DNA of 64,000 nucleotides from Terriglobia bacterium (GCA_965223005.1 CBDCVK010000010.1:1536001-1600000), one strand, 5' to 3'. Shown: positions 16,219 through 52,660, numbered from the stretch's first letter. Numbers and translations are program-made. Notes: generated by a model from the letters alone, not told the origin.

Positions 16219-16245
16219 GGTAGACACTAGCCGTTTATGGGGACC
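16219..16245 (-). repeat. dif-like site F (1 bp short)
   Basis: Minus strand GGTCCCCATAA-ACGGC-TAGTGTCTACC; a second half-site GGACCCCACTA at 16184-16194. Confidence 0.7.
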
Positions 16246-17158
16246 TATCCGACATTGCTGGTGAGAAGAAAGGTGTCTCACCAGCACACTTTCGCGAGGG
16301 CGTTCCCGTTTAGTTGAAAGGTTGAGAGGCGGTTCTCGCCCCGGGTTCAGTAGAAATTCGGGGTGAACTCGGCAGGGTCTTGGTGATGACCGTAGGCGTC
16401 AGCCTCGCCGACTGTGAGGGGGCTCCGCCTGTTGGAAGCGCTGTGTCGAAGGGTGACTCGCTCGATTACAACGCGAACTCTTTGGTCTCACCCTCCTTCA
16501 GATCGTACACTTGATCCCTGATGCCGATCTTGATCGGATGTCTTTCTCCCTTGCAGGCACACACTTGTAGTCTGTCACGAGAAGCTTCTATCTCAAGCAT
16601 ATGTCCTCGATAACGAATGCGCATGCGCAGTCGTGCCAGATCGTCCGGAAGGCATGGATTGAACCAGAGGGCGTCACCGCGCATCTCAATACCGGTATAG
16701 CCGCGTTGAACTAGATCCAAAGTACCGGCCATAGCACCTAAGTGGATGCCCTCAGCCGTGGTTCCGCCCTGAATATCAGCGACATCGCTTTCCAATGCCT
16801 CTACAAACAACTTCCAGGAGCCTCCGCGGTCCGACCGCGCTAAGACCCATGCATGGATGACACGACTCAGTGAGGATCCGTGGGAAGTGCGCTTCCAATA
16901 GTAGTTGATGTTCTTGGGAATCGTCTCGCGATCGAAGTCGTAGCCGAGGCGGCTGAACAACTGAGATAATTCCTCAGCAGAGAACAAATAGAAAAGCATG
17001 AGCACATCGGCTTGTTTGGAGACTTTGTATCGGTTCGTCGTGTCTCCCTCCGCCTCGAGAATCCGGTCAAGTCGATGGATGTTGCCGTACTTGCCCCTAT
17101 AGGCCTCCCAGTCAAACTCTTCGAGCCGCTCATACCCCTCGAACTGGCTGATGATCCC

Positions 17159-17596
17159 ACCGTCGTGAAATACGATACGCATTTTCCGGCTGATATCTTG
17201 CCAGTGCTCGATCTCCTTCTGACCTAGGTCGAGGCGCTCGCAAAGTCCTTGGCGACGGTCCTCGGGCAGTAAAGCAAGCAGTTCCAGCGCGCAGCACAGC
17301 ACCCACACCGCCATTAAGTTGGTGTAAGCATTGTTATTCAGGCCCGGATTATGCACCCCCGGATAGCCGTCGTGGTACCGTCGTGAAATACGATACGCAT
17401 TTTCCGGCTGATATCTTGCCAGTGCTCGATCTCCTTCTGACCTAGGTCGAGGCGCTCGCAAAGTCCTTGGCGACGGTCCTCGGGCAGTAAAGCAAGCAGT
17501 TCCAGCGCGCAGCACAGCACCCACACCGCCATTAAGTTGGTGTAAGCATTGTTATTCAGGCCCGGATTATGCACCCCCGGATAGCCGTCGTGGTAC
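17159..17596. repeat. 218 bp perfect tandem duplication
   Basis: Sequence starting CGTCGTGAAATACG at 17161 recurs at 17379; AC microhomology at the junction. Confidence 0.9.
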
Positions 17597-17944
17597 TCGT
17601 CGGGTCCCATGACACCCAAAATCTCATAGCGGTCAAGTTCGGCATTGTAGGTAGCGATGCTCGCCCAAAAACGAGCAATCTCCAATATCATTTCTGCGCC
17701 GTGGAAAAACAGGAACTCCTGGTCGCGCGTCACTTGATAGTACTGCCAGGCATTGTAGGCAATCGCTGCGTTCACGTGACGTTGCAGTCGGCTATGGTCC
17801 GGCAGCCAGCGTCCCGATTTAGGGTTGAGATGGACGTCCTGGCTTTCCTCCCGCCCATTACTGCCGCTCTGCCACGGATACATCGCACCCCGGTACCCTG
17901 CCTTGCGCGCGGCCACGCGTGCCTCATTCAGGCGCCGATAACGA

Positions 17945-17992
17945 TACATGAGCAGGGCCCGCGTCATCTACATGAGCAGGGCCCGCGTCATC
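17945..17992. repeat. 24 bp tandem duplication creating an in-frame TAG
   Basis: TACATGAGCAGGGCCCGCGTCATC x2; protein reads MTRALLM*MTRALLMY. Confidence 0.9.
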
Positions 17993-19109
17993 TTGGGAAT
18001 ACGAAGGCTAGGGAATTGGAAGATGAATAACTCATCCCAAAAAATGTGGCCTCGATACGCCTCACCATGCCAGCCTCGCGCCGGCGCCCCGACGTCGAGG
18101 TCAATGGTGTGGGGCGAAGTAGTCTGCAGCAGGTGAAACACGTGCAGTCGAAGGATCAACGCCGTGCGTTCACGCTGGTTAGGCCTGTTGAGCTCAATTT
18201 CGATATCGAAGTAGCGCCACAAGTGCTCCCAGGCCAGGGCGTGGCTTTCGAAGAGCTTGGCGAAGGGCGCAGCCTCTGCGACCGCCTCCTGGGCTTGGAG
18301 ACCACACTCGGAGATCCCGTGATCCCGGGATGTGAAGAATGCTATGACCTTCTCAATAGTAACGGTGGTCCCTTCGCTGATATCGACGCCAAACTGCTGA
18401 GCGATGTAACCCGGTTCTTCGATCGTGTGCCTTTCCACCGCGAGAGTTTCCCCGTCTCGAAAGACCTGGGTTCTGGCGGCTTGCGCAATGCGAATCTTGG
18501 ACTGGTTGGTTTGAACCTCCAAGTAAATGGCCTGTTCCCCAATTGCCTTGGTTTCGAGCGGTTCGAGATGGTTGTTATTGAGGTTCTGGTAGCGCTCGAC
18601 ACCGGCATTGACCACGCGACCGTCGAGGGCGAACTTGATTTCCAGTCGCCCCGACCAGTTTTCGGCGGTCAGTCTCGTTTCCAGACCTGCGAGATGGGGG
18701 TTCCCCATATGCACCAGGCGGCGTTCAGTCAGTCTGGTTTGGCGGCCCTGTTTGTCGCGGAATCGGACAGTGCGCAGGAGCACCCCCCGCTTTAGATCGA
18801 GTTCTTGGCGGTAAGACAGGATTTCAACCGTCCTCAAGTTGAACCAAGGGCTATCGCCGAGGTGAAAGGTAAGTGGAAGCCAGTTCGGAAAATTGACCAA
18901 ATCTTCGTTTTCCACGATTCGGCCCGCAACCTCTGTGCGGACTCGGTTGTATCCGCCAGGCAGATAAGTCCCGGGGTAGTGGATCGCGTCTGCCTCCGCT
19001 TCTGGGACCGCACCCCTGGTTGCAAAATAGCCGTTGCCCAGGGTGCACAGGGCCTCGCGCAGTCCTTCCTGAGCAGGATTGAAACCCTCGAATACGAGTG
19101 ACCACGAGC

Positions 19110-19931
19110 TCATAAGGAATCTTTTCCTAAAGAGGACAGCTCCTCCAGCGCTACTCGCGGACTCTTGAATGTGTCGGACACAGCAACCTCTGAGAGATCG
19201 GATACGACCAGATTCGCGCCGTTCTCCCTGAGGGCGGCGCCATGGCCGGTTCTGTCGATTCCGATGACCCAACCGAACTTGCCGCGACTTCCAGCTTGCA
19301 CGCCCGCAATCGCGTCCTCAACGACGACAGCTCGCGCGGGGGTCACGCGGAGCTGACGGGCGGCCTGGAGGAAGATGTCCGGAGAGGGCTTACCTTTCAG
19401 ATTTAGACGAGCCGAGTCTGTGCCGTCAACCTTCGTATCGAACAAGCCTGCGATCCTTGCTGCCTCCAGGACCTCAGCGCAGTTCTTGCTGGAAGAGATA
19501 ATTGCAGTCTTGATCCCTTTTGACCTCAGATTGCGAATCAGGTCGACCGTGGAGCTGAAGACTTCTACACCCAACGTTCGCAACTGTTCAAGAAGGAGCC
19601 GATTCTTCTTGTTCCCGAGGCCGCAGATGGTTTCCTGCTCGGGGGTATCCGCTGGGTTCCCGAAGGGGAGCTTGATCCCGCGGGACTGTAGAAAGCTTTC
19701 CACCCCGTCGTAGCGTGGCTTTCCATCCACATAGCATCGGTAATCGGAGTCAGGGTCGAAAGGACGGAACACCCGGCCACTCCCGGCACGTCTTGCCAGG
19801 TATTCATCGAACAGTTTCTGCCAAGCTGCCGCATGGACCCGTGCGGTTTTTGTGACGACGCCATCGAGGTCAAAGATGACCGCGTCGTGGATGTTTTGAG
19901 AAATGGTGAAGGTAGGCGTGTCTTGGTCCAT
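19110..19931 (-). CDS. Beta-phosphoglucomutase family HAD hydrolase
   Basis: IFDLDGV, SSSKN, KPSPDIF, VVEDAIAG; coupled to the GH65 gene. Confidence 0.88.
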   Translation of the reverse strand: MDQDTPTFTISQNIHDAVIFDLDGVVTKTARVHAAAWQKLFDEYLARRAGSGRVFRPFDPDSDYRCYVDGKPRYDGVESFLQSRGIKLPFGNPADTPEQETICGLGNKKNRLLLEQLRTLGVEVFSSTVDLIRNLRSKGIKTAIISSSKNCAEVLEAARIAGLFDTKVDGTDSARLNLKGKPSPDIFLQAARQLRVTPARAVVVEDAIAGVQAGSRGKFGWVIGIDRTGHGAALRENGANLVVSDLSEVAVSDTFKSPRVALEELSSLGKDSL

Positions 19932-21744: not shown

Positions 21745-22365
21745 TCATTTTCTTCCTGACACTGGCTTGCGCGACCCTGCGGCGTCCCCAACTGGGGTCC
21801 GATCGCGGTCCACAACCAGTTCGGGGTACAGGCGGCGGAACGTTTCGGCGATGTGGCAGTTCCAGCAAACCGGCCGGTGTGTAGTCAGCACCCCGGGAAT
21901 TGTCTCCGGCTGCAGATCCCGCCACTCGACTGTCACGCCCTCAAGGTCCAGCAGCGCGTGTCGTTCCAAGTTGATTTTCCCCAGGGGCTTGCCACAATAG
22001 AGGCAAGTTTTTCCCTGGTACCAGTCGGTAACAATGGTTCGCACCAGATAGTCCCTCGGGGCTGCCTCGATCTGGCTCAGGCACGCCTCACCGCAGTTGC
22101 GGAGTTCTCGTGCCGGAGCCGCCGCCAAAGTTCCGGGCCAATGGGAACAATGCTTCACTCGCAGATCCGGGCCAGAGAAGCTCGTCCAAGCGGCATGACC
22201 GGCCTCCACTTGGACTGCCGCCGGCTTCTTCGTTTCCGGACAAGTGACCACCCGGGTCCCGCGAAACTTCAGCCAGGCACTCCCCGTCGTGCGTAGCACC
22301 AGATAGATGGCACCGACGACTCCAGCGACGGCACAAAAAACGATTACATAAGTCAGCGTATCCAT
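21745..22365 (-). CDS. Membrane-anchored Cys-rich hypothetical protein
   Basis: N-terminal TM helix; TCPET, CSHWP, CGEAC, CLYC, CWNCH. Confidence 0.7.
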   Translation of the reverse strand: MDTLTYVIVFCAVAGVVGAIYLVLRTTGSAWLKFRGTRVVTCPETKKPAAVQVEAGHAAWTSFSGPDLRVKHCSHWPGTLAAAPARELRNCGEACLSQIEAAPRDYLVRTIVTDWYQGKTCLYCGKPLGKINLERHALLDLEGVTVEWRDLQPETIPGVLTTHRPVCWNCHIAETFRRLYPELVVDRDRTPVGDAAGSRKPVSGRK

Positions 22366-22962
22366 GGAATCAGCCCTCCTTTCCGGTACTCCAGGAATCG
22401 CTCCCAGTACCTGGATGGGCAATCCAAGGACCATCGGCAAGTCCCACTAGATCAGTACGAAACGAGCCCAGGTGTGTGAAAAGCCACAGTATTATGGGTC
22501 GGCAGCCGGGTAGTGGGTCAGTTTCCGGAAAGGGTGCTATCCGGCCAAGTGCGCCCCAACGAACGTGAAGGTTGACAATCGCCTAGCCCTCGAATCGAGA
22601 AGGTCAGAAATCCCCGAAGATCGGTATCCGTATACCAGTGAAGAATTCGATCAGCGCCACCAGCCGCGACATGAGGAAGATCAGGATCGAGAAATAGACA
22701 ATATCGCGGGCTGTTCTGAGCCTCTGCAACCACTTTGCTTTGGCTTCTGATGTGATCGCCATTTCCATCACCTCATCAAGCTATATGACCCTACCCATTC
22801 GCTTGCAAGCGTTTAACCAAAGTGTTGTACCTCGACGAACGCTATACTTGCCGCATGGTCTTTGAGTGAATTCCCGCACTAAAGGGTGATTGTCCTCGCC
22901 GCGAGCCAAGCTCCGGGTGGCTGAGTACTGAGCCGCAACCTCCAGAAACCTCAGGGTTCAGG

Positions 22963-27045: not shown

Positions 27046-28135
27046 CTATGAAACAGCCGCCCCGCCAGCTTTGCCAAACGGCAGCCACACACTGAATTCG
27101 CTGCCCTGACCTGGTGAACTGCCTACCTCGATCCGACCGCCGTGGGCCTCCACGATGTGTCTGGCCATCGACAGTCCCAGGCCGGTCCCCTGGCCTTTGG
27201 TGGTGAAGAATGGACGAAAGACGCGGTCCAAATCCTCGATCGAGATGCCACGGCCGGTGTCAGACACCCTGAGGACGGCAAAGCTGCCTTCCCGCGCCAA
27301 CGTGAGCCGCACCTCGCCAGCGTCTTCGATTGCCTGGAGGCCGTTTAACAAGAGTTTTAGCAGCACCTGTTGGATTTGTGTCTCGTCGTGCTCAACCGGC
27401 GGCAGCGCGTCTCTGCTAACTAGTTGGATGTCAACGGGCCGCGACAGCACTTGGTGGCGAGCGAGGGCCAGAGCGTGCTCAGCTGTGGCGTGAAGATCGG
27501 CCGCATGAAGATCCGGCGGCCTGGGTCGTGCGGTAGTCGAGCAGGTCGGAAATGATTTTCTTCATGTGAACGATTTCCTGCTGAACTTCTTTTAATACTT
27601 CCCGCCCGGGGCTCGACTTTGGCAGCTCCTGCCCGATGATCTCGATCACTCCGGCGATGCCTGCCAGCGGATTCCGGAGTTCGTGAGCCAGGCCAGTGGC
27701 CAGTTCGCCCAGCGTGGCCAGGTGCTCGGCGCGGGACATCTGGCTGTTGTGAAGCTGCTGAATTTGCTCGCGGGTCTGCCGCAATTCCCGCACCATCTCG
27801 TTGAAGTAGCGCCCGAGATCGCCGATTTCATCCTTCCGGTCTGCAAAGCTCACAGCCACTGTCAGGTCCCCGCCACGAAGTTGGGCAATCTTTTCTTGGA
27901 GCTCCCTCAGGGGGTGTTGAATGAGAACAGCGAGGACTACAAGCATCACCGTGCAGATTGCTACCGCGCCTGCCGCCGCCACCAGAATCACCGTTTGCCG
28001 CTCCGGACCTTCAAAGGAAAGCGTCACCCAGACAAAGACGAGCACGCCGCCTAGTAGCACCCCCGCCACGGGGAGCACGGCTTTCAACTGCCAGTTCGCA
28101 CGCCAGTCGCTCAAAGTCAAGCGCACGTGGTTCAT
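27046..28135 (-). pseudogene. HAMP-domain sensor histidine kinase, frameshifted
   Basis: 2 TM + HAMP + LAHELRNPL; one extra base near 27532 (LDY-c-ARPRPP); ATPase motifs DTGRG, FFTTK, GTGLGL in the second frame. Confidence 0.85.
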
Positions 28136-28339
28136 ATTAGCATTTGTATTTACTGGCAGCGGCAGACCTTGCCTCAGATCAACATCTACAAGGTGCGGCA
28201 TTGGCCGCATCTTTGCAGCCAGGTACTGCTCGAGGCGCCGGGGTTGCCTGCTCTTGCGGCCAGTAGCCGGCCGCCTCAGGTACGCAAGATGTCGAAATCA
28301 TCATCAATGGCGTGCCGAGCAGCACCGTCACCACGGCCG

Positions 28340-33926: not shown

Positions 33927-33950
33927 TACGCCTGGCGCAAAAGGCTGGAT

Positions 33951-36097: not shown

Positions 36098-36133
36098 TAT
36101 CTACTCTCAGCTATTGAAGTGACACTGCCTCCA

Positions 36134-36212: not shown

Positions 36213-36243
36213 TATCTGGCATTGCGGCTGACAAGGAGGTAGG

Positions 36244-36699: not shown

Positions 36700-36742
36700 C
36701 GAGGACTCCTCCAGCAAACGGTAGGGCAGCCGATTCTCCCAC

Positions 36743-37276
36743 CTACCATGAGACTTCGAACGGCTTGCCTGCCTCCAATTCAATGACACCGCCTTTGCCC
36801 GAAGCTTCGCCTGTCGATAAGACTTTTCGGACTTCGGCGCCTCCAAGAGGATTTTCGGGGTCGGCCATCCGGCCCTCAACCATCTCGATCTTCAGGGGTC
36901 CACCTTCATTACGGATCGTGGCTCGCAATTTCAATCCCTCAATGTACGACGAGGCCAGGTATCTGTTATGGTCATCCTGGACCTTGAGGTCATGGCTCAT
37001 TGTCTGGGTAGCCGGAGGCCGATACCGTGATTTTGGAGTACGAGATGCCACTCGGACTCGAAACTCTGTTCCCACAGGGCCCGACCAGCGGAAACCCAAC
37101 ACCCACGGGTTGTTGGGGTCGTCCTGGCTGGCATTCCCGGGTTGTGCACCACTACCTTGTTGGGCCGAAGCTGCCGGATTCGCCTGCTGGCCCGAGGTGC
37201 TGGTCTCATCGCTTCCGCCGCACCCTACAAGAACCGAGACCAGCAGCAAAGGAAGCACCTTTGATAAGTTCCTCAT
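36743..37276 (-). CDS. Hypothetical lipoprotein
   Basis: Lipobox LVGC, Ser/Gln linker; GAGG RBS. Confidence 0.75.
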   Translation of the reverse strand: MRNLSKVLPLLLVSVLVGCGGSDETSTSGQQANPAASAQQGSGAQPGNASQDDPNNPWVLGFRWSGPVGTEFRVRVASRTPKSRYRPPATQTMSHDLKVQDDHNRYLASSYIEGLKLRATIRNEGGPLKIEMVEGRMADPENPLGGAEVRKVLSTGEASGKGGVIELEAGKPFEVSW

Positions 37277-37383
37277 GTTCCCCTCTTTCATTGACAAGGT
37301 TACCCGGCCTTCGACCCGGCCGGGGACTGACTGAGTCCGTCATCGTTTTTCGCCGACGACAGCCAAATCCCGCCCGACGGCCT

Positions 37384-37794
37384 TCACAAAGCCGCGCGGA
37401 TGCGTCCGCACAGGACCCTCAGGATGCCACGCGTCACCTCCATGTGGTTGGCCATCAACCTGAGGAAGGGCGCGCTAGAGAGCTTGAAAAGCTGGGTCGG
37501 CTCAAGCGCAGTGACCGAGGCTGCGCGTTGCTCGGGGTCCAGAGCGGCCAATTCGCCAAAGATCTCCCTGGGTCCCAGCTCGGCGATGTCGCGGCCGCCC
37601 GAGTGGACCCGAATCCGGCCGTCGATGATAATAAACATGGCCGTTCCCATGCCACCCTCGCGGAGGATCTCTTCGCCGGGCCCAAATTCCATCTCCTCCA
37701 GGATCGAGGCAACCTCGACCAAGGCATCCGCGGGAACTGCGGAGAAGAGGTCAACGGACTTCAGGATCAGCACCCTTTCCAGTGTAATCCGCAT
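37384..37794 (-). CDS. Stand-alone cyclic nucleotide-binding domain protein
   Basis: ERVLILKSVDLF, FGELAAL...RAASV. Confidence 0.88.
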   Translation of the reverse strand: MRITLERVLILKSVDLFSAVPADALVEVASILEEMEFGPGEEILREGGMGTAMFIIIDGRIRVHSGGRDIAELGPREIFGELAALDPEQRAASVTALEPTQLFKLSSAPFLRLMANHMEVTRGILRVLCGRIRAAL

Positions 37795-40594
37795 CAGCTT
37801 CCTCCTTCGAGGTTGTCGGCCGCCCGTTCGGCATTGTCCGTTCGGGCATTGGGGTCCAGGACGGAAACCGCCCAGGCTGCGGTTTCGTGAACCAGGGGAT
37901 TTGGATCGTCGATCACATCGCGAACCGCGTCCAAGAGTCTCGTGTCTCGGGTCTTGCCAACCAGGTAGTTGCGCAGGCCCGTGTCCAGGGCAACAGCAGG
38001 GCGTTGGTCATGACCTCGCGCTGCAAGCGTTCCCTGCTGGGGGATTCTCGGGGCACCCACTCCTTCAACCGTGCGAGCTGCTCTCCCGCCGGGATGTCGT
38101 AAAAAAGGGGAAGGGTCATCGCCTTCATGTCCTGGCTCAGCAGGTTGTCCACCACCTCGAGGCCGGTGGCGCGCATGTCGGCGTGATCGCTGCACAATTT
38201 CTCCTTGGCGTCCAAGATCGCCTGAGAGGGAAACAGAAAGGACAGGAGGGAAAGTATGCGGTCGCGGCCTTGGCGGGCTTCCCATTCGAGCGCGCTGGCC
38301 AGGAGGTCCATTGCCCTTGCGGTACGCCACTGCTCAAGCGCCGTCAGAACCCACACAGTACTCTGCACTTCCTGCCGGATGTTGTCGCGTATCAACGCGA
38401 CAGTGTCACCACGGGCTTGGTAATTTCGCTCCGCCAGCTCGTCGAGCAGGGGATGCCGCACCCTTCGATTTGGGATGGACAGATAACCCAGCAACCGTTG
38501 TGTTGAGGCTTCGCTCCCGATCTCGCCCATCAGCCTGATCAGCAGAACGCGCTCCACGTCGGTGGTTCCCTCTCCATCGAACGCCGCCGCCAGCTCAGGA
38601 AGGGCGGGCTCGCCTAGGCTCACCAACGCCTTGAAGGCGAGTTCGCGCAAAGCGGGTTTTCTGAGACGTTCAATGATCGGCACGGCGAGTTTTGGGTTGC
38701 GGAGCTTGCCGGCGGCGACGATCACCGCTCGCTGCACACCGGTGTTTTCGTCGTCCAGGAGCGACAGGAGCGGATGATAGAAACCCGTGCTCCCGACGTC
38801 ACCGAGAACTTCGGCCGCGAATTGCCGCTCTCGCGGGTCCGACGACTTCAGCAGCTCGACCAGTTTCGATCCCGCCAGCAGCACGCCCTCCAGCCCACCG
38901 TTTCGCAACAGTCCGACCATGGCGCCTCGTTGCACGTGTTTATCGGCCGAATCCAGATGGGGCAAAGCCACGTCTAGCGCCTCGTCAGCATGCAACACAC
39001 AGAAAACTCTCACGGCGTCGCCCCGCACCTCACTGTCGCTTTCCGTCCCCATCAGGCCCAAGACGCGATCGGCAGCGGTGGTGATGTGGTTCGCCTCAAT
39101 CTGCGCGAGCGCGTGCTTGCGGACGTTGCTGTCGGGGTGAGCAAGCGCTTTGAGCAGGAATTCGTCCAGCGACGGGTGCTCGGCCTGTTCCAGCAACTTG
39201 AGACCGGTAATCACCTCAATGGGCATGTCGCTGTTCAGTCTTTCTTCGAGAATCTGCTGGCTCGAAGCGTCATCGAACGACAGGAGCCCTCCGGACAAAC
39301 GCCGCCGGCTGATGGCGCTGGTAAGCGCGATGACGTATTCGCGCCGAACCAGGAAAACACTCAGAACCGTCAAGCCGAGAAACGCCATGAGGACGTATGC
39401 CAGCCCGACGCTGGTGAGTTTCCATACCTCGGTCAGCAGCAAAATCAGGAACCCTGACAGCGCGATGGCGATCGGTTCGATGATCGATTCGCGTACCGCC
39501 TGCGCGCGCAGCCGGTCACCGGGACCAAGGGGCTGATAGAGAATGCGGAAGGTCGGCATTTCCAATGCCGACGTGGCGGCCTCGTGGACCAGCTTGGTGC
39601 CGATCAGGATCCACAGGAACGCGCCGGCCAGCGCAAGGGCGGCGAGTCCCAGTGCCGAGACGAGTCCCACCGTGGCTGCGGCCGGCGCCGCCACAAGGCC
39701 CGCAAGCACGCCAAACCGCGCCAGTAGACGGGCGGTGACCACGCCGCTCGCCACCAGGTTGACGAGGCTGAGGACGGCGAAAAAGATGCCGAAGAACCCG
39801 GCCAGCGCCGCCTCGTTCGTGTAAACCGACTCCACTTGATCGTAAAAAATGTAGTCCAGCAGGAAGAAGGAGACGCACGACAGCAGCGAGAGAATAAAGA
39901 AAGGACCCAGGAACCTGTCACGGCAAAGCTGCAGGAGAGATTTCCGGGTGACCACCTCTTCCTCCACGTCCTTCTGGGCGAAGTGATGCCCCTGCATCTT
40001 TTCCATGACCACCAGCATCACGAAACAGAGGCTGAGACCCACACCGGCGATCGGTATCAGGTGAACCGTTCCCGTCAGATCGACAATCCAGGGCATGCTG
40101 AAGCCACCCAGGATGTTCGCCAGAACATCTCCCGTGGCCACCAGCCCGAAGAGGCGCTTGCCCTGGCGCACGTTGAAGAGGAAGCCCGCGACCGCCCAGA
40201 ACTCGATATGGATGAGGACCCAATACACGCCCTTCCAGACCATCACCGCCATCCAAAGCCATTTGCCCGGCGCCAGCAGTATGAGGAAGTAGAAGCCGGC
40301 CATGACTGCGATCAGGAAGACGAGCACGCCCTTCATCAGCGAAAGCGGCTTGACCCTTTCCTCGCATTTCACATAAACCAGTCCCACCACCACCGAGACG
40401 GCAGCCGTGGCGATGTAGACGTAGGGAAGGAGGCTTACCCCGTATTCGGAAAGGAACTTAGTGTTTGCGGCAGTCTCGAGAAAGAGGACCGACGTACCCG
40501 TGAAGAAGGAAGTGATGAAGAGCAGAGCGAGGGCCTGGCCCTCACCCGACCTGACGTCGAAAGCCGACAAGATGCTGCCCCGCAGATTGATCAT
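37794..40594 (-). pseudogene. Nucleotide-translocase (Npt/TLC)-like MFS domain plus HEAT repeats, frameshifted near the C-terminus
   Basis: About 12 TM helices with FW...FNVRQGKRLFG, then HEAT repeats; one base missing near 37969 (WTRACA-YLVG); the other frame ends DPNPLVHETA... and abuts the cNMP gene (TGATG). Confidence 0.75.
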
Positions 40595-40841
40595 CGACCT
40601 GGTCCCAGGTTTTAACCGGAATTTCCGATTTCAACTTTACCTTTGCGCACAATCATACGCCAGTCGCCCTTTGCGGAAAGCTTACATCGCCATGGCCGTG
40701 ATGGGGGGGAACCGGCCCGTCTTGGCAGTTCGGATGACCTCCTTAGTGTGTTCCGGACCTCCCGCCTGCCGCGCTGCTAATACTCTCTGAGAGTGCAGTA
40801 ATTCTCTGAAACGGCAAGAGTTGGCTCAGACTTGGCAGATA

Positions 40842-40869
40842 GGTCCCCACAAGTCGGTTAGCGTTTACC
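40842..40869 (+). repeat. dif-like site D
   Basis: GGTCCCCACAA-GTCGGT-TAGCGTTTACC. Confidence 0.85.
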
Positions 40870-40883
40870 TATGCTGCCACGCC

Positions 40884-40942
40884 GCCCACTTTGCCGTATA
40901 ACGCGCTAACCGGACAAGTGCCTTGGATTCCCTTCGGGAAAG
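40884..40942 (+). repeat. Accessory element next to site D
   Basis: GCCCACTTTGCCGTATAACGCGCTAACCGGACAAGTGCCTTGGATTCCCTTCGGGAAAG. Confidence 0.85.
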
Positions 40943-41082
40943 CGCAAAGGATGGAAGGGACAGATCTTTGAAATCCTTCCAAATGTGAAATTATTGCCAC
41001 CTGGAGAGGCCAGGACTAAAGCGGCAAGGTCCCGTAAGGATTCTGGCTGTAGGGATTTGAACTCCTTTTGCCTGTTGGCACC

Positions 41083-41310
41083 TCAACCTTTCAGTGCCGC
41101 TTTGGCCCTCGGCGAATCGGCTGGCACTACCGCCTTGCTCCCACAGGTAGGACACCCCTGATAACTGGCCCCGTGCCGCCAGACTGAGTAGATCAGTCCA
41201 GGGACCAGGAAGCAGAGCCAAAGTACGACCTCGACCCCTATTGAGCCCGGCATTACCCGCTTTGGGGAACCAGCCACCTCGCAATCAAGGCAGTACATTT
41301 TCTTAGCCAT
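41083..41310 (-). CDS. Small zinc-ribbon membrane protein
   Basis: CLDC...LWLCFLVPGLIY...CPTC. Confidence 0.7.
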   Translation of the reverse strand: MAKKMYCLDCEVAGSPKRVMPGSIGVEVVLWLCFLVPGLIYSVWRHGASYQGCPTCGSKAVVPADSPRAKAALKG

Positions 41311-41557
41311 GTCTTTAGCCCCTCTATCGGTTTGTATGTGCTGGGAATGCGCTAACAAACCAACTGTCGAACCGCGTCCTACTGCCCGCTGCCTACTCTG
41401 TCTCGGGAGTGGAATTCCGAGCTTGCGCGAAGCCCTGGCCTCGGCCTGGGACATAGTCTTCTGTTCCATTCACCCACAGGGTCCATCAGACAGTTCCGAA
41501 GCTATGTTGCTTATAGTCGATTTGTTGCCAAAAGTCCACAGGGCATGATGACCTTTG

Positions 41558-41773
41558 ATGGCCGAAGATGTTCGTGCCCGCTTCGGGCGAAGACTGCGCA
41601 GGCTCCGCACAGGGAGGGGCTGGACACAGGTGGAGCTAGCGGAAAAGCTGGGTCTGGATCGGAGTTATCTTGCAGACATAGAGCGCGGCAGACGGAACGT
41701 GTCCCTGATGAATCTTGAAATCATTGCCAAAGGTTTTGAGCTGTCATTGTCACAGCTGCTATCCCAGGTTTAG
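41558..41773 (+). CDS. XRE-family HTH regulator (controller/C-protein-like)
   Basis: FGRRLRRLR...WTQVELA...DRSYLADIERGRRNVSLMNLEIIA. Confidence 0.88.
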   Translation: MAEDVRARFGRRLRRLRTGRGWTQVELAEKLGLDRSYLADIERGRRNVSLMNLEIIAKGFELSLSQLLSQV

Positions 41774-41981
41774 GAAGTCCCAGTGATTGCACCGCATAGG
41801 ACGCGGCTTGTGGCTTCCGTGAAAGGAGTCGCGGTCCAAGAAGGCTGAGCCCGCTACGGGGGAAGGAAGAGGACACGAAGGCACTGGAACGGGTTGGCTC
41901 GGCACCGGATTCTTTCAACGGAAACCCCTGTTTGGCTGGACGACCTGACCAACCCACAACCGTTCGTCGCTTCTAATCATC

Positions 41982-43493
41982 TCAGAAAACCATAAACGGT
42001 ACCCGTGGTCTAGCCATCGCGCCCACCAGCGCCCCAGCAGCGGCGTTTGCCAGGTCATCATGCCCGCCTGGGCCGTGGTCCACGGTGTCCCTTCCGATCC
42101 GGGAAGTCCGGCGCTCCAGAGAGCGCAGTTGCGCCAAGAGTCGAATGTTGTCCAGTAGCTCTACCTTGCCGCTGTTGATGGCGGGCAGAAGTTCCAGGTA
42201 AAGCTCGCTTTTGGTCTTGTCCGCCGGTTTGTACTCGATTCCGTGCTTTCGGAATTGCTCCCTGGGCCATTCGCCACCGTACCTGTCACCAGTTACCGTA
42301 CTCAGGCGGTAAGCCTTGAGTACTCCGGCAAACTCAGAGGCAACGGCCTCTGGCGAAAACGGCGGTTTCTGTTCCCTCACCACGTCTAGAACCGCCGTCC
42401 CGTTCTCGCTGTGAGCTATTGCCAAGGTCATACTGTCCTGGCTGCCACCAGAGGGGTCAACAAAGCCGAAGTATCTGACTTTGGAAACACGAGGAAGCTC
42501 ATACCTTCCATCGACTACCACAGCCCCAACCGCCTCCGCAGAAACAAAGCCCTCAATATCACGCCGGAATTGGGCGCCGTATTCTGCCTCTGCTGCTGAT
42601 TCATCCTGCGCATAGGCTTCTGCGATCACCTGTTCGTCAACCGATGGATTCATGCTGCGAGTGTCAGCATGCCAGACCAGCACCGGGTCTCCGTCTTGGC
42701 CGTAGTGCCGCCGGTAGGCTTCCCATAAAGCCCCGCGCCTTGCGTAGGGCGAAGAGATGCACAACAGCAGGGCATCGGGAACCGTCGCCATGCCGGGGCG
42801 TAGCCCGTTCAGGATTTCCGTGTCGGGATTGGCTGAGTCTTCCGAGCGCCAGAAGGCAATTTCATCGCAGATGGCCCCAATCACCGTGTAACCCCGCACG
42901 GCCCGGAAGTTCGCCGTGTGAACTTCGATGGTCACGCAATTGGTAAGGTGGATCGTCTCTCTCGTCCTGGACTCCACCATTTGCACCAGCATGGACACGC
43001 CGTCCAGTAAACCAGCGATGTAGCCAAAGACATGCCGCGCTTGTTTTCTGTCGGCGGCAATCACCATCACAGTTCCTCGCTCGCCCGGGGCCAAGATCTT
43101 TCGGTAATCGCGAAAGCAAGCCAAGAACACCGCTACCAGCGCCGCAATGCGGCTCTTGCCCCCGCGCCTGCCTACCACTAGCCAAGCTTCCCTGGTGGGC
43201 AATTCTGGAGCCGACGTGCGGCGAGTATGCTGCCGGTATATTCTCAGGTCGGCCCTGTGGATCGGCAAGCCAAACAACGTCGACAAGAAACCTTTCCAGA
43301 CGTCCCAGCTTTTACCCTGGAACCACGGGCCGAACAGGGCCTGATCCCGCGTCGCGTCTAGGATTGTCAGACCGCTTTTCACTGCCCGCCACTTCGCAGG
43401 ACCCAAGCTTCTTTTCTGCATCGTGGGGAGCAGTATGCCCTTGGCAATCCACGCCTCACCCGTTTTCTGAGCGCGGCTCCACAGTTCCGACAC
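41982..43493 (-). CDS. Terminase large subunit-like ATPase/nuclease
   Basis: Walker A GRRGGKS, Walker B AICDE, ISSP motif III, RNase H-like FVDPSGG and HDDLANA; start uncertain. Confidence 0.85.
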   Translation of the reverse strand: MSELWSRAQKTGEAWIAKGILLPTMQKRSLGPAKWRAVKSGLTILDATRDQALFGPWFQGKSWDVWKGFLSTLFGLPIHRADLRIYRQHTRRTSAPELPTREAWLVVGRRGGKSRIAALVAVFLACFRDYRKILAPGERGTVMVIAADRKQARHVFGYIAGLLDGVSMLVQMVESRTRETIHLTNCVTIEVHTANFRAVRGYTVIGAICDEIAFWRSEDSANPDTEILNGLRPGMATVPDALLLCISSPYARRGALWEAYRRHYGQDGDPVLVWHADTRSMNPSVDEQVIAEAYAQDESAAEAEYGAQFRRDIEGFVSAEAVGAVVVDGRYELPRVSKVRYFGFVDPSGGSQDSMTLAIAHSENGTAVLDVVREQKPPFSPEAVASEFAGVLKAYRLSTVTGDRYGGEWPREQFRKHGIEYKPADKTKSELYLELLPAINSGKVELLDNIRLLAQLRSLERRTSRIGRDTVDHGPGGHDDLANAAAGALVGAMARPRVPFMVF

Positions 43494-43563
43494 TTCTCCC
43501 CATCTACCCTAGAACGTTTTGGAAAACGTTCTAAGGCCCCTGTCACATGCTCCCCACTGGCTA

Positions 43564-44100
43564 CTACCTTTCTGGAAGCCGGGCGGGCTGCCGGGGGCGA
43601 TAGGAGGATTGACGCCCCCTATCCCCCCTTCGCCCACCCAAGCGTGGATTTCCCTCCGATTTGCTCTCAAGTTCGGGCTTGGCACTCCTCTTCCCCTGAT
43701 AATTCTCCGCGATGTATTGAGCCAGCGCCGGGATCGGCTTCGTCTTTCGCTCTAAACCAAGCTGCCCCAGGATGCGGGCCAGCGAATCAACAAGCTGTTG
43801 GCGCTCTCGCAGCACCGGCAGGACCGACTTGCGCTTCCGGTTCACCAGAGACTCTTGCTCCATAATCCAGGCGTCCAGACTGTCCACATACAGCCGCGTC
43901 CTGACCGTCATGTCCACCAAGGCCATTTGCTGGGCGCTGACATCCTCCTCCCCGCCCAGGTCCGCGAGAAGTTCACGCCGCCAGGCAACAAGGGCCTGAG
44001 CCGCCGCCGTCCGCCGATCAATTGCCTGGAGTCCCCGTACCTTCACCTGGGCCTTCAGGGCGTTCAGACCATGCCTGGAGTAGGGTCTGCGGTCGGTCAT
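43564..44100 (-). CDS. Hypothetical protein, possible terminase small subunit
   Basis: Basic helical ORF with N-terminal SRHG, directly upstream of the TerL-like gene. Confidence 0.55.
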   Translation of the reverse strand: MTDRRPYSRHGLNALKAQVKVRGLQAIDRRTAAAQALVAWRRELLADLGGEEDVSAQQMALVDMTVRTRLYVDSLDAWIMEQESLVNRKRKSVLPVLRERQQLVDSLARILGQLGLERKTKPIPALAQYIAENYQGKRSAKPELESKSEGNPRLGGRRGDRGRQSSYRPRQPARLPER

Positions 44101-44254
44101 GACACATCCCCACCGGTAGAGATTCCTCCGGCGCCGTGGCGTGAGGCCAAGTGGGGTGAGACCAAAAGGTGGGTAAGCTGTTGAACCGCTAGCAGCAGTT
44201 CTTTTGCTTCCGGCCCCGGAGCGAGACAGAAAGTTCGATACGTGTCAACGAAGG

Positions 44255-44329
44255 GGAGCCAATCCTTTCAAGGACTTACATCAGAACTGTCTTAAGGCTC
44301 GTGGTAGACTGTAGCGGAAACTGTAGCGG
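44255..44329 (+). repeat. attR-like remnant plus paired 10 bp direct repeat
   Basis: GGAGCCAATCCTTTCAAGGACTTA vs tRNA-Asn end GGAGCCAACCTTTTCAATCAGTTA (19/24); ACTGTAGCGG at 44308 and 44320. Confidence 0.5.
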
Positions 44330-44785
44330 GTGCGTGCTGCTTCGGTCCCTCCATGGCTGCCAGCCTGCCCCTTCTCAAGCTGCTGCCTAACGCGGCTGGA
44401 TCGTTCATTTTTTCTGCTCACCCATATTATCCACTCGCTCTCCCGGGCGCTTTCCGGGACGATCTAATGCCCCCACGCATGCCCTCTAGCGGAAGCGTGC
44501 GACCCCACCTGGGCCAATTCTGCTCGAAAGACGCCCATTCCTCGTCTCGAACTCGCCGCTTGGCGCTTTTCTTCTCCTTGGGGGAGCAATTCAATGAATC
44601 GCTGATAAACATTGGGATTAGGCCGAGCCACTATTCGTTAGTCGCAAATCAGGAAACACCAGGGAAAGTAACATAGTTTTCGCTTCCATCACAGGGGGTG
44701 GGGGTTGCGCTATCTCACAATTCTTGCCAGCTGGAGGACAAATCCAACTATTTACTGGAGCGCAAGAACTCTTTCCTGAAGGATA

Positions 44786-44813
44786 AGTAAACGCTAAACG
44801 ACTTGTGGGAACC
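44786..44813 (-). repeat. dif-like site H
   Basis: Minus strand GGTTCCCACAA-GTCGTT-TAGCGTTTACT; 25/28 identical to site D, inverted. Confidence 0.85.
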
Positions 44814-45019
44814 TAGCCATTGAATCTGAGGCAAGCGGCTTCTACTCAGAGAGTTGCAGCCCAATCAAGCTAACAGCTCGAACACGGCTGCGGCTGAGAG
44901 TGAAAACCCCACCGAAACCGAACTCTTTTTTCGATTCGTTGCGCTGAAGCAGGAGGTGGAGAGGCCTCGCTACTTTGATTTCCATATGAGCCGCGCTGGT
45001 TCTGCTTTCGCCAAGTAGT

Positions 45020-46270
45020 TTACAGCGCCGCACGAAGTGCCGGCGACTCGCGCAGGTCAAAGTGGGGATTGATCTCGACTGCGCGCTGCAGGTATTCCTT
45101 ACCGCTCTCAGTTTCTCCGGCTTTCTGGAAAATCTTACCTGCGTGGTAGTAGAGGCGGGCGTCCTGGGTGCCTAACCGCAGTGCCTGGCCTATGGCCGCC
45201 GTGGCTTCCTCGATGAGCCCGGCCTTGTAGGCAGCCCAGGCCAGGGTGTCGAAGGCGGCGATGTCGCGGGCGGTGCGCAGGTCCTGGCGCATCCAGTCAA
45301 GCGCCAGGGCGAGGTTTCGGTCGTGGTCCGCGTAGAAAGTAGCCAACTCATGCCGTGCCATGTCACCCTGGTCCAGCAATAACCGCTCGGCGCGGCGGTA
45401 CTCGCGTTCGGCCGCTCGCGCCTGGCCGCGCCGACTGTAGATATCTCCAAGTAGAATGTGCGCGTTGGGGGCGGCCCAGCGGGTCGCACGCCGGACCAGG
45501 CGGATCGCCTCCTGGTCGCGGCCGCGGGCGGCGCTCACCCGCGCGCGCCCCACCAAAGCTAGTTGAGAATCGGACCAGGCGCCGAGCGCCTGGTCGTAGG
45601 CGTGTTGTGCCGCGTCCAAGTCGCCGCCGCGGAAGTACAGGTCTCCCAGTTGAGTTAGGCACCAGGACAGGTTCTCCGGGTCGCGCGGGCTGGCGGCGCG
45701 AACAGCCAGCTTCATGATCTCGATGGCGCCGGGGCGGTCTCCTAGCAGTTCGCGCAGGTGGGCTGCGCGGCTGTAGGAGGCGACGTCGGGACGTAATTCG
45801 ACCATGCGCTGGAAGGCCTCAGCGGCGACATCGTAGTCACCCAGTTCGAGGTAGGCATCGCCCAAGGTGCCATAGTTCCAGGCGTCGTTCGGTTGCATCG
45901 CCTGCGCTTTGCTGGCCCAGGCCAGCGACTCTTGGAAGCGGTGCTGCCCGGCCAGGACCCAGGCCATCATTTTGGTGGCTGCATAATGATTGGGCTCCAC
46001 CGCCAGGGCCCGTTCGGCGGCCTGCTGCGCCTTGCTGTACCACTGCTGGCCGCCGGCGGCGCGCGCCTTCCGCATGTAGGCGCCGGCGAGATCGGAAAGC
46101 AGATCGGTGTCATTGCCTACCTTCGCCAATCTTCGCTTCAAGATGGAGATGCGCTGCTCAATGTCGGGCGGAACAGAGGGCTGGCTGTCGCCGGCGGGGC
46201 GCGTCATCAAGAGGGCGCCCGAAAACAAGCCGAGCAGAAAAACCACGATGTAGAAACGTCTTCCAAACAT
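45020..46270 (-). CDS. Exported tetratricopeptide repeat protein
   Basis: N-terminal hydrophobic segment, multiple TPRs (LGDAYLELGDYDVA), DTLAWA; follows the DUF4331 gene. Confidence 0.85.
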   Translation of the reverse strand: MFGRRFYIVVFLLGLFSGALLMTRPAGDSQPSVPPDIEQRISILKRRLAKVGNDTDLLSDLAGAYMRKARAAGGQQWYSKAQQAAERALAVEPNHYAATKMMAWVLAGQHRFQESLAWASKAQAMQPNDAWNYGTLGDAYLELGDYDVAAEAFQRMVELRPDVASYSRAAHLRELLGDRPGAIEIMKLAVRAASPRDPENLSWCLTQLGDLYFRGGDLDAAQHAYDQALGAWSDSQLALVGRARVSAARGRDQEAIRLVRRATRWAAPNAHILLGDIYSRRGQARAAEREYRRAERLLLDQGDMARHELATFYADHDRNLALALDWMRQDLRTARDIAAFDTLAWAAYKAGLIEEATAAIGQALRLGTQDARLYYHAGKIFQKAGETESGKEYLQRAVEINPHFDLRESPALRAAL

Positions 46271-50387: not shown

Positions 50388-50968
50388 GGCTTGAGCGTCT
50401 CGCGCAGCGCCTTCAGACCGCTGCGAGTCCAGGTCTTCACCGTTCCCAGCGGCTGGTTCAGCCGCGTTGCAATCTCGCTCTGTGTGAAGCCCTCGTAGTA
50501 GGCCATCTCGATCACTCTGCGCTGCGGCTCGGGCAGCGTGGCCAGCACCCGGCCCACTCGTTCGGCCGTCTCCAGGCTGCAGTGCGTGTGCGGGGAAGCT
50601 GGTGGCGCTTGGTCTTTCAAGGGCACGGATGCCGCGGCATCACGCTGCTGACGAGACCGTAACCGGTCAATGGCCCGATTCCGGGTGAAGGTGAGCAGCC
50701 AGCCGAGCAACTCGCCGCGCGATGGGTCGAAGGAGCCCGCCCGACGCCAGAGCTGGAGGAACACGTCCTGGGTGACTTCCTCGGCAACGCTGGGGTCTCC
50801 GACCACGCGCAAGGCCAGGGCAAACACCAGGCGCCCGTAGCGGTCATAGAGGCGACCCAGGGCCTGCTGATCGCCGCGCGCGGCGGCCGCTACGTCGGCC
50901 TGGTCGGTCTCTCCTTTACGGGCAACCGCCAGCGCCATAACTAAGAATACGGCGGGAGCGGCAGCCAT
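50384..50968 (-). CDS. ECF sigma factor (SigK-like)
   Basis: LYDRY, AEEVTQDVFL, RNRAIDRLR, PLGTVKT; overlaps the anti-sigma start. Confidence 0.92.
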   Translation of the reverse strand: MAAAPAVFLVMALAVARKGETDQADVAAAARGDQQALGRLYDRYGRLVFALALRVVGDPSVAEEVTQDVFLQLWRRAGSFDPSRGELLGWLLTFTRNRAIDRLRSRQQRDAAASVPLKDQAPPASPHTHCSLETAERVGRVLATLPEPQRRVIEMAYYEGFTQSEIATRLNQPLGTVKTWTRSGLKALRETLKP

Positions 50969-51152
50969 GGATGGGCAAGGGTATCATGTCTCGGTGGGCT
51001 CGCGATGAAGCCCGGTTACCCTGATCACGCCATAACGCCTCGCTGCGATCGGAAAGTGGCGGAGCAGCGAAAATTTGCCAGCCGGAGCGCTAGCCGCCGG
51101 TGGAGGGCATCAGTCCCCCAAGCTGCCGTGCTGCTAGACTGTCCACAGGACA

Positions 51153-52397
51153 ATGAAAGTCATCGTAATCGGCCTCGGCAGCGCCGGTGACGTTCACCCC
51201 AACGTGGGCCTTGCTCTGGCTCTACGCCGGCGTGGCCACCAGGTCCTCCTTGTCGCTGCCTCGATCTTCCATTCATTGGCGCAGCGCGCCGGTCTGGAGT
51301 TCGCCGGACTCGGCACCGACGACGAGTACTATGAGGCCATTCGCGATCCGGACATGTGGCATCCTCTCCGGTCCTTTTTTGTGTTGGCTCGACGCTTGAT
51401 CCTGCCTTCGGTGCCCCGGATCTACGACCTCATTGCCAGGCTTAATGAGCCCGGCCAAACCGTCGTTGCCGCCCCGGGCACAGCGCTCGGCGCCCGCATT
51501 GCACAAGAGAAGCTCGGCGTGCCGCTGGCAACCGTGCACCTGCAACCGATCATGCTGCGCAGCACACTCGAGCCTGGTTGCTTTGGCTTTCCGGACATCA
51601 TCGGTCACTTGCCGCGCCCGCTGAGGAGTGCTTACCTACGAGTGGTGGACCGGTTTCTCATTGACCGTCTCCTGGCGCCGGATACAAACGCGTTTCGCGC
51701 CGAACTCGGGCTGCCGCCAGTTCGCCGACTGTTCGATCGCTGGTTTCACTCGCCCCAGCTCATCATCGGACTTTTCCCGGAATGGTTCGCGCCGCCCCCT
51801 CCCGACTGGCCCCCCAATGTTCGTCTCACTGGCTTTCCACTCTGGGACGAAGGAGACCTGCGGCAACGTACTCCCGAGGCGGAAGAGTTCCTCGATGCCG
51901 ACGATGCACCAGTCGTCTTCACCGCGGGCTCGGCTATGGTCCAGGGCAGAGAGTTCTTCCGGATTTCGGCGGAAGTCTGCCGCGCCAGCGGGCGGCGAGG
52001 TTTGTTTCTGACCCAGTATCCTGAGCAACTCCCCGTACGACTCCCCAACGGAGTTCGTCACTTCAACTACATACCGTTCAGTACGGTATTGCCGCGAGCG
52101 GCCGCCTTTGTGCATCACGGCGGCATTGGGACAACCGCGCAAGCACTCGCCGCGGGCGTCCCGCAGATCGTCGTTCCCTCAGCTCACGACCAGCCGGACA
52201 ACGCTGTGCGCATCCGGCATCTTGGGGTCGGAGATTTTCTTCTACCGAGGGATTACAAGCCGGCTGCAGTTCTCAAATATTTGGACCGCCTACTCAGGTC
52301 GCCGGCAGTGAAGGAGAACTGCATACGGCGAGTCGGCGACGTCGCCGACAGCAGATCCCTTGAACAGGCCTGCGATTTGATGGAGCAGCTTCGATAG
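51153..52397 (+). CDS. GT1 family glycosyltransferase (RhlB/sterol GT-like)
   Basis: GSAGDVHP, HHGGIGT, HDQPDNA. Confidence 0.9.
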   Translation: MKVIVIGLGSAGDVHPNVGLALALRRRGHQVLLVAASIFHSLAQRAGLEFAGLGTDDEYYEAIRDPDMWHPLRSFFVLARRLILPSVPRIYDLIARLNEPGQTVVAAPGTALGARIAQEKLGVPLATVHLQPIMLRSTLEPGCFGFPDIIGHLPRPLRSAYLRVVDRFLIDRLLAPDTNAFRAELGLPPVRRLFDRWFHSPQLIIGLFPEWFAPPPPDWPPNVRLTGFPLWDEGDLRQRTPEAEEFLDADDAPVVFTAGSAMVQGREFFRISAEVCRASGRRGLFLTQYPEQLPVRLPNGVRHFNYIPFSTVLPRAAAFVHHGGIGTTAQALAAGVPQIVVPSAHDQPDNAVRIRHLGVGDFLLPRDYKPAAVLKYLDRLLRSPAVKENCIRRVGDVADSRSLEQACDLMEQLR

Positions 52398-52593
52398 CCG
52401 ACAAGTCGGTACGACACCCACTTCCCTATGAATCCACCGGAATTTATCCCAGGCTGAACTCCATCCTCTCGACTAAGGTGGAAGCACTCTTTCCTAAATC
52501 CACCATCGTCCTGGCCAGTTCGGTGGGCGATCCGGGGCTGCGAGCCGTTCAGGTAGAACTTGAGTAACTGCGAAACACCGCCTTCTCTGGATA

Positions 52594-52660
52594 GGTCGTC
52601 ACTAACGGGCTAGTGCTTATCAATCCCGGTTTCAGTTGGGCGAATAGTCGGCAAACCGGT
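52594..52660 (+). repeat. dif-like site B (52594-52621) plus accessory element
   Basis: GGTCGTCACTA-ACGGGC-TAGTGCTTATC then AATCCCGGTTTCAGTTGGGCGAATAGTCGGCAAACCGG, collinear with the site A region. Confidence 0.85.

Follow-up and report, generated by a model that had tools for sequence, protein, structure and literature searches.

The window analyzed here is a 64,000-nt stretch of a Terriglobia bacterium genome (C10:1536001-1600000; genome G000, 3.24 Mb, 10 contigs, 96% complete), for which three congeners (G001, G002, and G003) were available for comparison. The window contains eight copies, lettered A to H, of a 28-nt site that we call S and that an initial annotation had read as an array of dif-like 11-6-11 sites dividing an island into shuffled gene modules. 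Our analyses favor a different reading, which we regard as likely to be correct: the sites are the inner part of the long inverted-repeat ends of non-autonomous transposons, i.e., MITEs (miniature transposable elements with inverted repeats) or mobile insertion cassettes (MICs), that are mobilized in trans. On this reading, the array in the window is a cluster of transposase-less cassettes and not a new Xer-type shuffling system. The repeat family is real and well-defined, but of an ordinary kind, namely non-autonomous transposon ends.

Element ends, target duplications and an empty site

A profile built from genomic copies of S matches the genome 64 times at E ≤1 and 60 times at E ≤0.05, and these copies are alike well beyond the 28 nt. 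The parts of a complete end, from the inside to the outside, are an inner flank, S, a hairpin module (M), and a tip ending in ...CGGAAACTGACCCACTACC. The terminal inverted repeats are ~110-140 bp long, with S as their best-conserved, imperfectly palindromic, subterminal part; tips and M modules are similar in paired ends, and within the genus the repeat continues through S. Two subfamilies can be distinguished. S1 follows ..CCTTGTCACCAGCAATGCCG and precedes AATCCCGGTTTCA, while S2 has ~45 conserved bases before the site and CTATGCTGCCACGC after it. The two ends of an element are unequal, one being of the S1/M1 type and the other of the S2/M2 type, and both face outwards. M has a 5-6-bp stem and a ~22-nt loop, occurs in the compensating versions CACTTG/CAAGTG and CAGTT/AACTG, and terminates in ..CGGAAACTGACCCACTACC or ..CGGACAAGTGCCTACC. 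In 22/60 copies, the end of the conserved terminus, GGTAGTGGGTCAGTTTCCG, is 81-99 nt (once 144 nt) away from where the S profile begins.

Most of the 28 nt of S are conserved at ≥90% in an alignment of 55 copies, as might be expected of a predicted protein-binding site. In the same alignment the 6-bp core, which had been described as variable, takes two subfamily forms, ACGGGC and GTCGGT, with a GG that is invariant or nearly so. The palindrome is imperfect (78.8% of cells pair, versus 28-40% for slid partner columns) and its dyad partial, with GGT..ACC outside and CTA..TAG inside.

Outward-facing tip pairs bracket segments of 0.24-5 kb flanked by 8-bp duplications. To score these, nearest outward-facing tips were taken as pairs and their flanking octamers compared, with the octamers one step further out as a control. 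A duplication of ≥7/8 bases was found at 2/7 pairs in G000 (1 perfect), at 10/15 pairs from G001 and G003 loci (5 perfect), and at 46/71 non-redundant pairs among the matches listed from other Acidobacteriota and metagenome contigs (27 perfect). Overall, 58/93 pairs reach this level; in the control, 0/93 reach 6/8 and the maximum is 5/8. There is no strong consensus among the duplicated octamers. Elements with good duplications measure 242-4386 bp outside the genus, with a median of ~1 kb among the matches listed, and up to 5 kb within it. Intact duplications also flank elements that carry S itself (loci L052, L041, L050, and L048, and G000 C10:899896-901951).

In a search for insertion polymorphism, 29 motif-holding regions of G001 were compared with G000, which yielded one clean case. 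At G001 locus L052, a 3.1-kb insert, its left end of the S1 and its right end of the S2 type with tips outwards, is flanked by CAACCCAA and CAACCCGA, and the uninterrupted target CAACCCGA is present as an empty site in G000 (C10:558484-558489). The sole sizeable gene of the insert encodes a protein kinase with TPR repeats (Pkinase+TPR). A second comparison bears on the cargo: G000 C10:899896-901951 and positions 2687-4092 of G001 locus L048 have common flanks and the same duplication (CTCGCTTT, or AAAGCGAG on the other strand) around unrelated interiors. It follows that a pair of ends can stay in place while its cargo changes.

In the mechanism we propose, a DDE-type transposase supplied in trans would bind the ends and insert the elements with staggered cuts 8 bp apart, with S perhaps offering an additional binding site to this enzyme or to a DNA-bending protein of the host. 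Being numerous and alike, the ends would in addition be substrates for homologous recombination, leading to cargo swaps inside fixed ends and to breaks in synteny. A more static account would make the S units immobile relics, merely homologous-recombination hot spots and landing pads for insertion sequences (ISs), with no transposition in the genus. The copies are diverged (mean column identity 66% over the 55 copies), end pairs in the window lack duplications, other ISs lie in or beside ends, and many synteny breaks fall inside the repeats. However, the S-bearing elements with intact duplications named above belong to this genus, and L052 has its empty site in a congener; we consider the static account quite unlikely.

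Genome-wide dispersal and the array in the window

The 60 profile matches lie on 7/10 contigs and gather in about a dozen hot spots. All are intergenic, with 0/60 inside open reading frames (ORFs) of a crude GC3-based gene set covering ~80% of the DNA, and their orientation relative to genes is unbiased (the upstream gene is co-oriented in 30/60 cases, the downstream gene in 26/60). Such genome-wide, strictly intergenic, and orientation-unbiased scatter comes near to what the initial annotation had itself named as speaking against its proposal. Its observation that the sites are missing from the housekeeping flanks holds within the window; the motif as such, however, is a repeat dispersed over the whole genome. 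The window has six profile matches in 36 kb, whereas the genome averages one per 54 kb, so that the local clustering is real, yet it is one hot spot among several. The four genomes of the genus have 29, 47, 7, and 28 matches to a degenerate version of the pattern, and the reversed pattern used as a control gave 0 matches. Beyond the genus, a single match occurs in G017 (1/37 other relatives searched), and the other 36 relatives, including three genera of the same family (72, 94, and 71% complete), gave 0. The S module thus appears from these comparisons to be an addition found in this genus, and the tip and M part is old and widespread in Acidobacteriota.

All eight strings are present in the window where, and on the strands on which, the initial annotation placed them, and their orientation alternates by cluster (- + - + - +) as it had said. 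A preceding GATA or GAT holds for 7/8, C having GTA instead. The pattern GGTCCCCACTANNNGGNTAGYGTTTAYC, allowing ≤3 mismatches, has four matches in the window (E, A, D, and B) versus 0 in 100 shuffles. The nhmmer profile matches F, E, A, D, H, and B at E-values from 4e-13 to 1.5e-3, just a fragment of the left arm in G (E 0.32), and nothing in C. Six of the sites thus form one repeat family, while C and G share only the family's left arm; they are therefore hybrids that combine this arm with a second, distinct repeat module, GCTTCCGACTGACAG. The family has two more ends in the window, both without S, which had not been listed before. The units and modules of the window, in order, are as follows.

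16182-16293, minus strand: unit F, with an S1-type site (16219-16246) whose core is one base short, a hairpin in the inner flank, and a tail reaching the tip-like AGTAGTGGGG at 16182; related copies lie at C9:108453-108594 and C5:240081-240172
22207-22252, plus strand: right-end module without S, consisting of an M hairpin and a tip variant
22509-22556, minus strand: left-end module without S, with the canonical tip GGTAGTGGGTCAGTTTCCG at 22509-22527 (0 mismatches) followed by an M hairpin
33795-33871, plus strand: unit C, a hybrid half-site in which an S2-type inner flank and the site's left arm (33841-33851) are fused to GCTTCCGACTGACAG
33872-33908, plus strand: M2 module with the hairpin CACTTG..CAAGTG, which in canonical copies is the terminal ~45 bp of the inverted repeat
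33941-33985, plus strand: unit E, with an S1-type site (33951-33978)
36067-36099, minus strand: unit G, a hybrid half-site like C
36134-36243, minus strand: unit A, with a tip variant at 36134, an M1 hairpin (36137-36173), an S1 site (36185-36216), and an inner flank extending to the stop codon of a TPR gene (36244-36879)
40748-40923, plus strand: unit D, with a conserved inner flank, an S2 site (40842-40869), and an M2 module (40884-40923)
44780-44856, minus strand: unit H, with an S2-type site (44786-44813), an inner flank, and a tail of another type, TTACTTATCCTTCAGG
52586-52659, plus strand: unit B, with an S1 site (52594-52621) and an M1 hairpin, truncated before the tip, with a loose end at 52652

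The M2 module, unit E, and the hairpin GGATTCCCTTTGGGGAA form a composite that has eight further occurrences in the genome, and other copies of unit B in metagenome contigs run on into CGGAAACTGACCCACTACC.

Along a row of elements, left-facing (-) and right-facing (+) ends must alternate, which explains the alternating sites. Judged from their end types, A (S1, minus) to D (S2, plus) and H (S2-like, minus) to B (S1, plus) look like units of 4.8 and 7.9 kb, and F (minus), the two ends without S (22207-22252, plus; 22509-22556, minus), and C/E (plus) suggest two more. Because the window pairs lack duplications, B is truncated before its tip, and C and G are hybrid, the region is an old, rearranged accumulation of elements. 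It begins at a tRNA-Asn and an integrase gene (13835-15190), and most of the DNA from 13.8 to 51 kb has no close counterpart in the congeners. The 16-53-kb interval would be a plasticity zone beside the tRNA-Asn and integrase, in which several elements and fragments have accumulated. A direct repeat derived from the tRNA-Asn that might delimit an island was sought in the window, and none of ≥14 nt was found.

Several local features adjoin the units. A run of nine Gs (16150-16158) stands directly outside the tip-like end of F. The 53 bp at 52657-52709 beside B are 100% identical to C10:1300164-1300216, and the piece has the opposite orientation in the orthologous intergenic region of G001. An 'opposite strands' joint at 52657/52738 recurs in contigs of all four public sequencing runs considered, for which the paralogous copy is the simplest source. 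S1 units like that of A also stand ~25-30 nt past the stop codons of paralogous genes for TPR proteins that share a C-terminal coding end (window 36216-36260 and at least C10:249991, C3:129774, C10:94637, and C2:519252); TPR gene and S1 end have evidently spread together.

Other observations concern genes between the units. Two ORFs (16466-17524 and 17968-19272) make up a gene of glycoside hydrolase family 65, inside which a perfect tandem duplication of 218 bp is found at 17159-17594 (two copies, 100% identical); 218 not being divisible by 3, either the duplication is recent and shifts the frame or it is an artefact of assembly. A histidine kinase at 27046-28210 is likewise split, with HAMP and HisKA at 27479-28210 and HATPase_c at 27046-27450, and may be a pseudogene or reflect a sequencing error. 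The stretch between D and H (41982-44100) encodes a 503-aa protein with the Walker A motif GRRGGKS and, upstream, a 178-aa basic protein. The former has weak matches to terminase large subunits (NF033889, E 7e-4; PF03354, E 3e-3), beyond which searches of the unannotated ORFs of the window with Padloc and NCBIfam returned nothing useful. By these matches the stretch looks like a phage-type packaging remnant. It has homologues in G001 and G003 at 75-85% DNA identity, one of which adjoins S units.

Module exchange and alternative mechanisms

That the sites mark the edges of exchangeable gene modules, as first proposed, is borne out by comparison with the congeners. Window positions 33868-36216 are 92% identical to a segment of G003, and the similarity begins just after C and ends at the GATAG outer edge of A, with unrelated DNA beyond; the block holds a 612-aa ORF without a family match. 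A glycosyltransferase block beside B (51052-52477) is 98% identical to a segment of G001 that stands in a different context, without B but with an S unit on its other side.

The crossover itself had been placed in the 6-bp cores. Among 26 breakpoints, defined as the ends of homology near S in the comparison of G001 with G000, 0/26 fall at the core (profile positions 19-26) and 4/26 at the tip (offsets 96-108); the others are spread over the repeat or are found 105-146 nt inside it. Since all ends are alike, breakpoint positions mostly mark where similarity fades. Their distribution would fit homologous recombination between ends and lends no support to a core crossover. In assembled contigs of the four public runs, depth peaks and contig ends fall on repeat units; the joints that link S copies have short sides (20-53 letters) that fit other copies of the repeat, and show neither inversion nor excision. 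Breaks at such places in assemblies of these organisms are thus accounted for by the repeats.

These data bear directly on the Xer or pdif-like proposal, in which S would be an 11-6-11 site for two tyrosine-recombinase monomers and strand exchange in its core would move or invert modules. The partial dyad of S, the alternating orientation in the window, the recurrence of S-bounded modules in other contexts, and the differing cargo inside the same end pair can all be cited for it, as can 12 matches to PF00589 recombinases in the genome, ~5 of them within 10 kb of an S copy (coordinates read by eye). The cargo swaps, however, are explicable by homologous recombination between repeats of 110-140 bp that are 70-90% alike, and the core is no free spacer but comes in two fixed variants with a conserved GG. 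S is not restricted to one replicon or island, with 60 copies genome-wide, and no breakpoint lies in the core. Elements carrying S also have tips and flanking 8-bp duplications. Site-specific recombination is not known to make target-site duplications; the 8-bp duplications are the signature of a transposase, and an Xer mechanism is therefore not supported. Taken together, the duplications, the breakpoints, and the genome-wide spread leave crossover by Xer proteins or the island integrase very unlikely.

The alternative that the initial annotation had offered, a REP/HUH-type enzyme acting on single-stranded hairpins, fares no better. Here the sites would be repetitive extragenic palindromes (REPs) or the hairpin doublets built from them (REPINs), mobilized by a REP-associated tyrosine transposase (RAYT) of the Y1/HUH type. 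Copies of S are intergenic, palindromic, dispersed, and mosaic, as in bacterial interspersed mosaic elements (BIMEs), palindromes made of two tips around 8 bp resemble REP doublets, and the tip contains a GTAG. REPs tagged with GTAG are described in the part of PMC3733652 consulted here. Against such an origin, PF01797 (Y1/RAYT) has 0 matches in both G000 (96% complete) and G003 (97% complete), with two in G001 and one in G002. The elements moreover hold kilobases of cargo, unlike REPINs, and are flanked by 8-bp target duplications, which HUH transposition is not known to make. We regard a REP-type origin as extremely improbable.

Structured RNA has also to be considered, S then being a small RNA, an mRNA-end stabilizer, or a terminator whose dispersal is secondary. 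In keeping with it, S1 at several loci follows the stop codons of paralogous TPR genes by ~25-30 nt, the C-E composite has a hairpin of the C(UUCG)G type, and the TAGCG/TAGTG variation would give G.U pairs on the complementary strand. At the Rfam gathering threshold, however, the whole window yields three tRNAs only and no family match at the units, and relaxing the search to E ≤5 in 33000-45500 adds two chance-level matches only. With no orientation bias relative to neighboring genes, weak covariation, and tips and target duplications left unexplained, a primary RNA function is in our estimate highly unlikely. Integron attC cassettes, which share one orientation beside an intI gene and have R''/R' boxes (GTTRRRY), were considered and rejected, since site orientation alternates and the GTT is not conserved, the place reading GGCTAGCG or GGTTAGCG.

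Wider family, transposase search and significance

Cassettes bounded by this tip extend well beyond the genus. The tip 19-mer, at ≤1 mismatch, occurs in 6/401 genomes sampled from the phylum, including G000, and exact matches are found in at least 109 stretches of species-representative genomes and at least 120 of metagenome contigs. Among the matches listed, the titles are mostly those of Acidobacteriota or Terriglobia metagenome-assembled genomes (MAGs), with a few other phyla. In plasmids the tip had no match, and among viral contigs one stretch matched. Ends from outside the genus have ~45 bp in common and are asymmetric too, with a ..GCGCGTTTATC.. type and a ..GCCGACTAATC.. type that correspond to M2 and M1, respectively. 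Examples of the cargo are, by Pfam, a kinase, an alpha/beta hydrolase, a GNAT, and a TPR protein, and, as judged from translations alone, FHA, RRM, and methyltransferase-like ORFs.

A transposase belonging to these ends was sought in several ways. Clustering of the ORFs ≤3 kb inwards of 300 tips at 235 loci, among the matches listed, brought out no family of transposases, and the largest cluster, which is not one of transposases, spans 3 loci. For the same matches, a 7-kb span that included open-ended ORFs gave generic families alone (regulators, kinases, permeases, and ABC ATPases). None of the ends of the 16 multi-copy repeats of G000 resembles the tip. PF01610 (ISL3) has no match in G000; the IS6, IS66, and IS1595 families were not searched. 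All 10 matches to PF00872 in G000 belong to one IS256-family IS with its own ends. The sole lead comes from our own comparison, in which its terminus GAGAGTGTCTCA equals the tip GGTAGTGGGTCA at 8/12 positions, with no similarity beyond the first 12 bases; a transposase of the Mutator family between such tips was not found. The transposases seen inside elements, of an IS256-family and an IS30-family IS, are passengers with their own inverted repeats; IS1380-like and IS21-like genes also occur there. Two candidates were accordingly discarded, a Mutator-family ORF in L067 as an autonomous copy, because it has its own inverted repeats, and an IS30-family ORF in L083 as the cognate transposase, because it belongs to a separate IS with 27-bp repeats.

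The resident ISs merit brief description. Copies of the IS256-family IS (G000 C2:60603-62051 and others) are ~1.44 kb long, 99.7-99.9% identical, and have clear 8-bp duplications of their own. Other ISs of G000 match G001 and G003 loci at ~99%, a level of identity that suggests recent activity or transfer. The IS30-family IS (HTH_38 and rve; L083:3358-4943) has inserted 28 bp inside the tip, and in two other genomes (L107 and L167) a stretch closely like its repeat stands at the same distance from the tip. The recurrence of this position suggests that the IS may target these ends.

Several observations weigh against the transposon reading or sit awkwardly with it. No cognate autonomous IS or transposase was found in G000, in 12 G001/G003 pairs, or in the GTDB and metagenome matches listed, and it is for this reason that we infer mobilization in trans. 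No recognizable canonical tip accompanies 38/60 S copies, which have other tails (F-type or H-type), are composites, or have degenerate ends; S therefore also travels in other contexts. At the window pairs 16182/22252, 22509/33908, and 36134/40923, flanks compared by eye show no matching 8-bp duplication. Several congener breakpoints lie within the repeat, at offsets 7 to 73, and not at the tip. The covariation of the S hairpin is weak (0.166 versus 0.136 shuffled; 6 double-change pairs versus 5.5 expected). Two arrangements, moreover, do not fit a simple two-ended model. In one, S1 (plus) and S2 (minus) face each other across ~30-45 bp, without M or tip (G000 C10:177999-178098, C10:180164-180275, and C2:519252-519357, and several G001 loci), a foldback, MITE-like form that the model leaves unexplained. 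In the other, exactly 8 (once 9) bp separate two tips that point at one another (G000 C2:144622-144632 and C10:109402-109411; L044, L045, L051, and L070; L136), and the spacers of these palindromes are alike within the genus (CCCGCCAG-like). One such spacer, at L070, holds a 5-kb element and is duplicated by it at 7/8 bases. The tip-to-tip structures could have arisen by insertion beside existing ends, or by copying of a circle or dimer junction.

Among described systems, the MIC, which is mobilized in trans, is the closest in kind. One example is the IS231/MIC231 system of Bacillus cereus. In Xanthomonas, the part of PMC4337579 consulted describes TnXax1-related MICs in which passenger genes lie between IS-type inverted repeats with target duplications and no transposase inside. 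According to the same source, these units, together with solo ends, gather in plasticity regions alongside integrases, phage-related genes, and other transposases, and neighboring ends may combine in alternative ways. As far as that account goes, the elements described here share the transposase-less passenger genes, inverted repeats, target duplications, solo ends, and plasticity regions with integrases. They differ in their 8-bp duplication (5 bp in Tn3-family MICs), in the lack of an autonomous partner for 300 ends among the matches listed, and in ends that are long, asymmetric, and extended in the genus by a 45-nt palindromic module. The family is also found in many Acidobacteriota MAGs, where it is abundant and consists mostly of single-gene cassettes of ~1 kb.

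[quoted passage not shown] Unlike TIME-COMPs as portrayed there, each resolved cassette pairs a left-type with a right-type end and shows just one duplication, and is therefore one element and not two MITEs flanking a piece of DNA. REPs, BIMEs, and REPINs, in the sections of PMC3733652 and PMC3116915 seen, are likewise intergenic, palindromic, mosaic, and genus-specific, with tens of copies, but the present family has no RAYT gene in 2/4 genomes and combines target duplications with kilobase-sized cargo. An 8-bp duplication, long ends, and gene cargo call to mind a further group. IS256 (Mutator-type) ISs and eukaryotic Pack-MULEs make target duplications of 8-9 bp, and Pack-MULEs have long ends and carry genes; relative to the IS256 family, the tip shares only the 8 of its first 12 bases noted above. 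The Xer-dependent pdif modules of Acinetobacter plasmids are small recurring gene modules bounded by alternating short sites. The likeness lies in alternating short sites that bound small modules found in different contexts, and the difference in that the sites here are subterminal in transposon ends with 8-bp duplications, chromosomal, and genome-wide, with breakpoints outside the core. At abstract level, the literature yielded no description of such elements in Acidobacteria.

A bolder version of the transposon reading can be sketched, though we think it rather unlikely. The cassettes, mostly single-gene and ~1 kb in median size, would then form a phylum-wide, integron-like pool moved by transposition with terminal inverted repeats and 8-bp duplications, through a transposase that the cassettes never carry and that is possibly chromosomal and domesticated; the S module of the genus would be a dedicated exchange or synapsis site for swapping cargo in situ.

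A testable reading thus replaces an attractive but unsupported chromosomal pdif-like Xer system. The alternation of the sites, the edges of the modules, and the breaks in synteny can all be put down to dispersed transposase-less cassettes and MITEs, and the missing transposase is the concrete question that the family raises. The family looks large, and what it carries are ordinary accessory genes, such as those for transporters, acetyltransferases, kinases, hydrolases, and TPR proteins. Expansion of gene families and gene flux are typical of Acidobacteriota in soil, and the family may therefore have a part in both.

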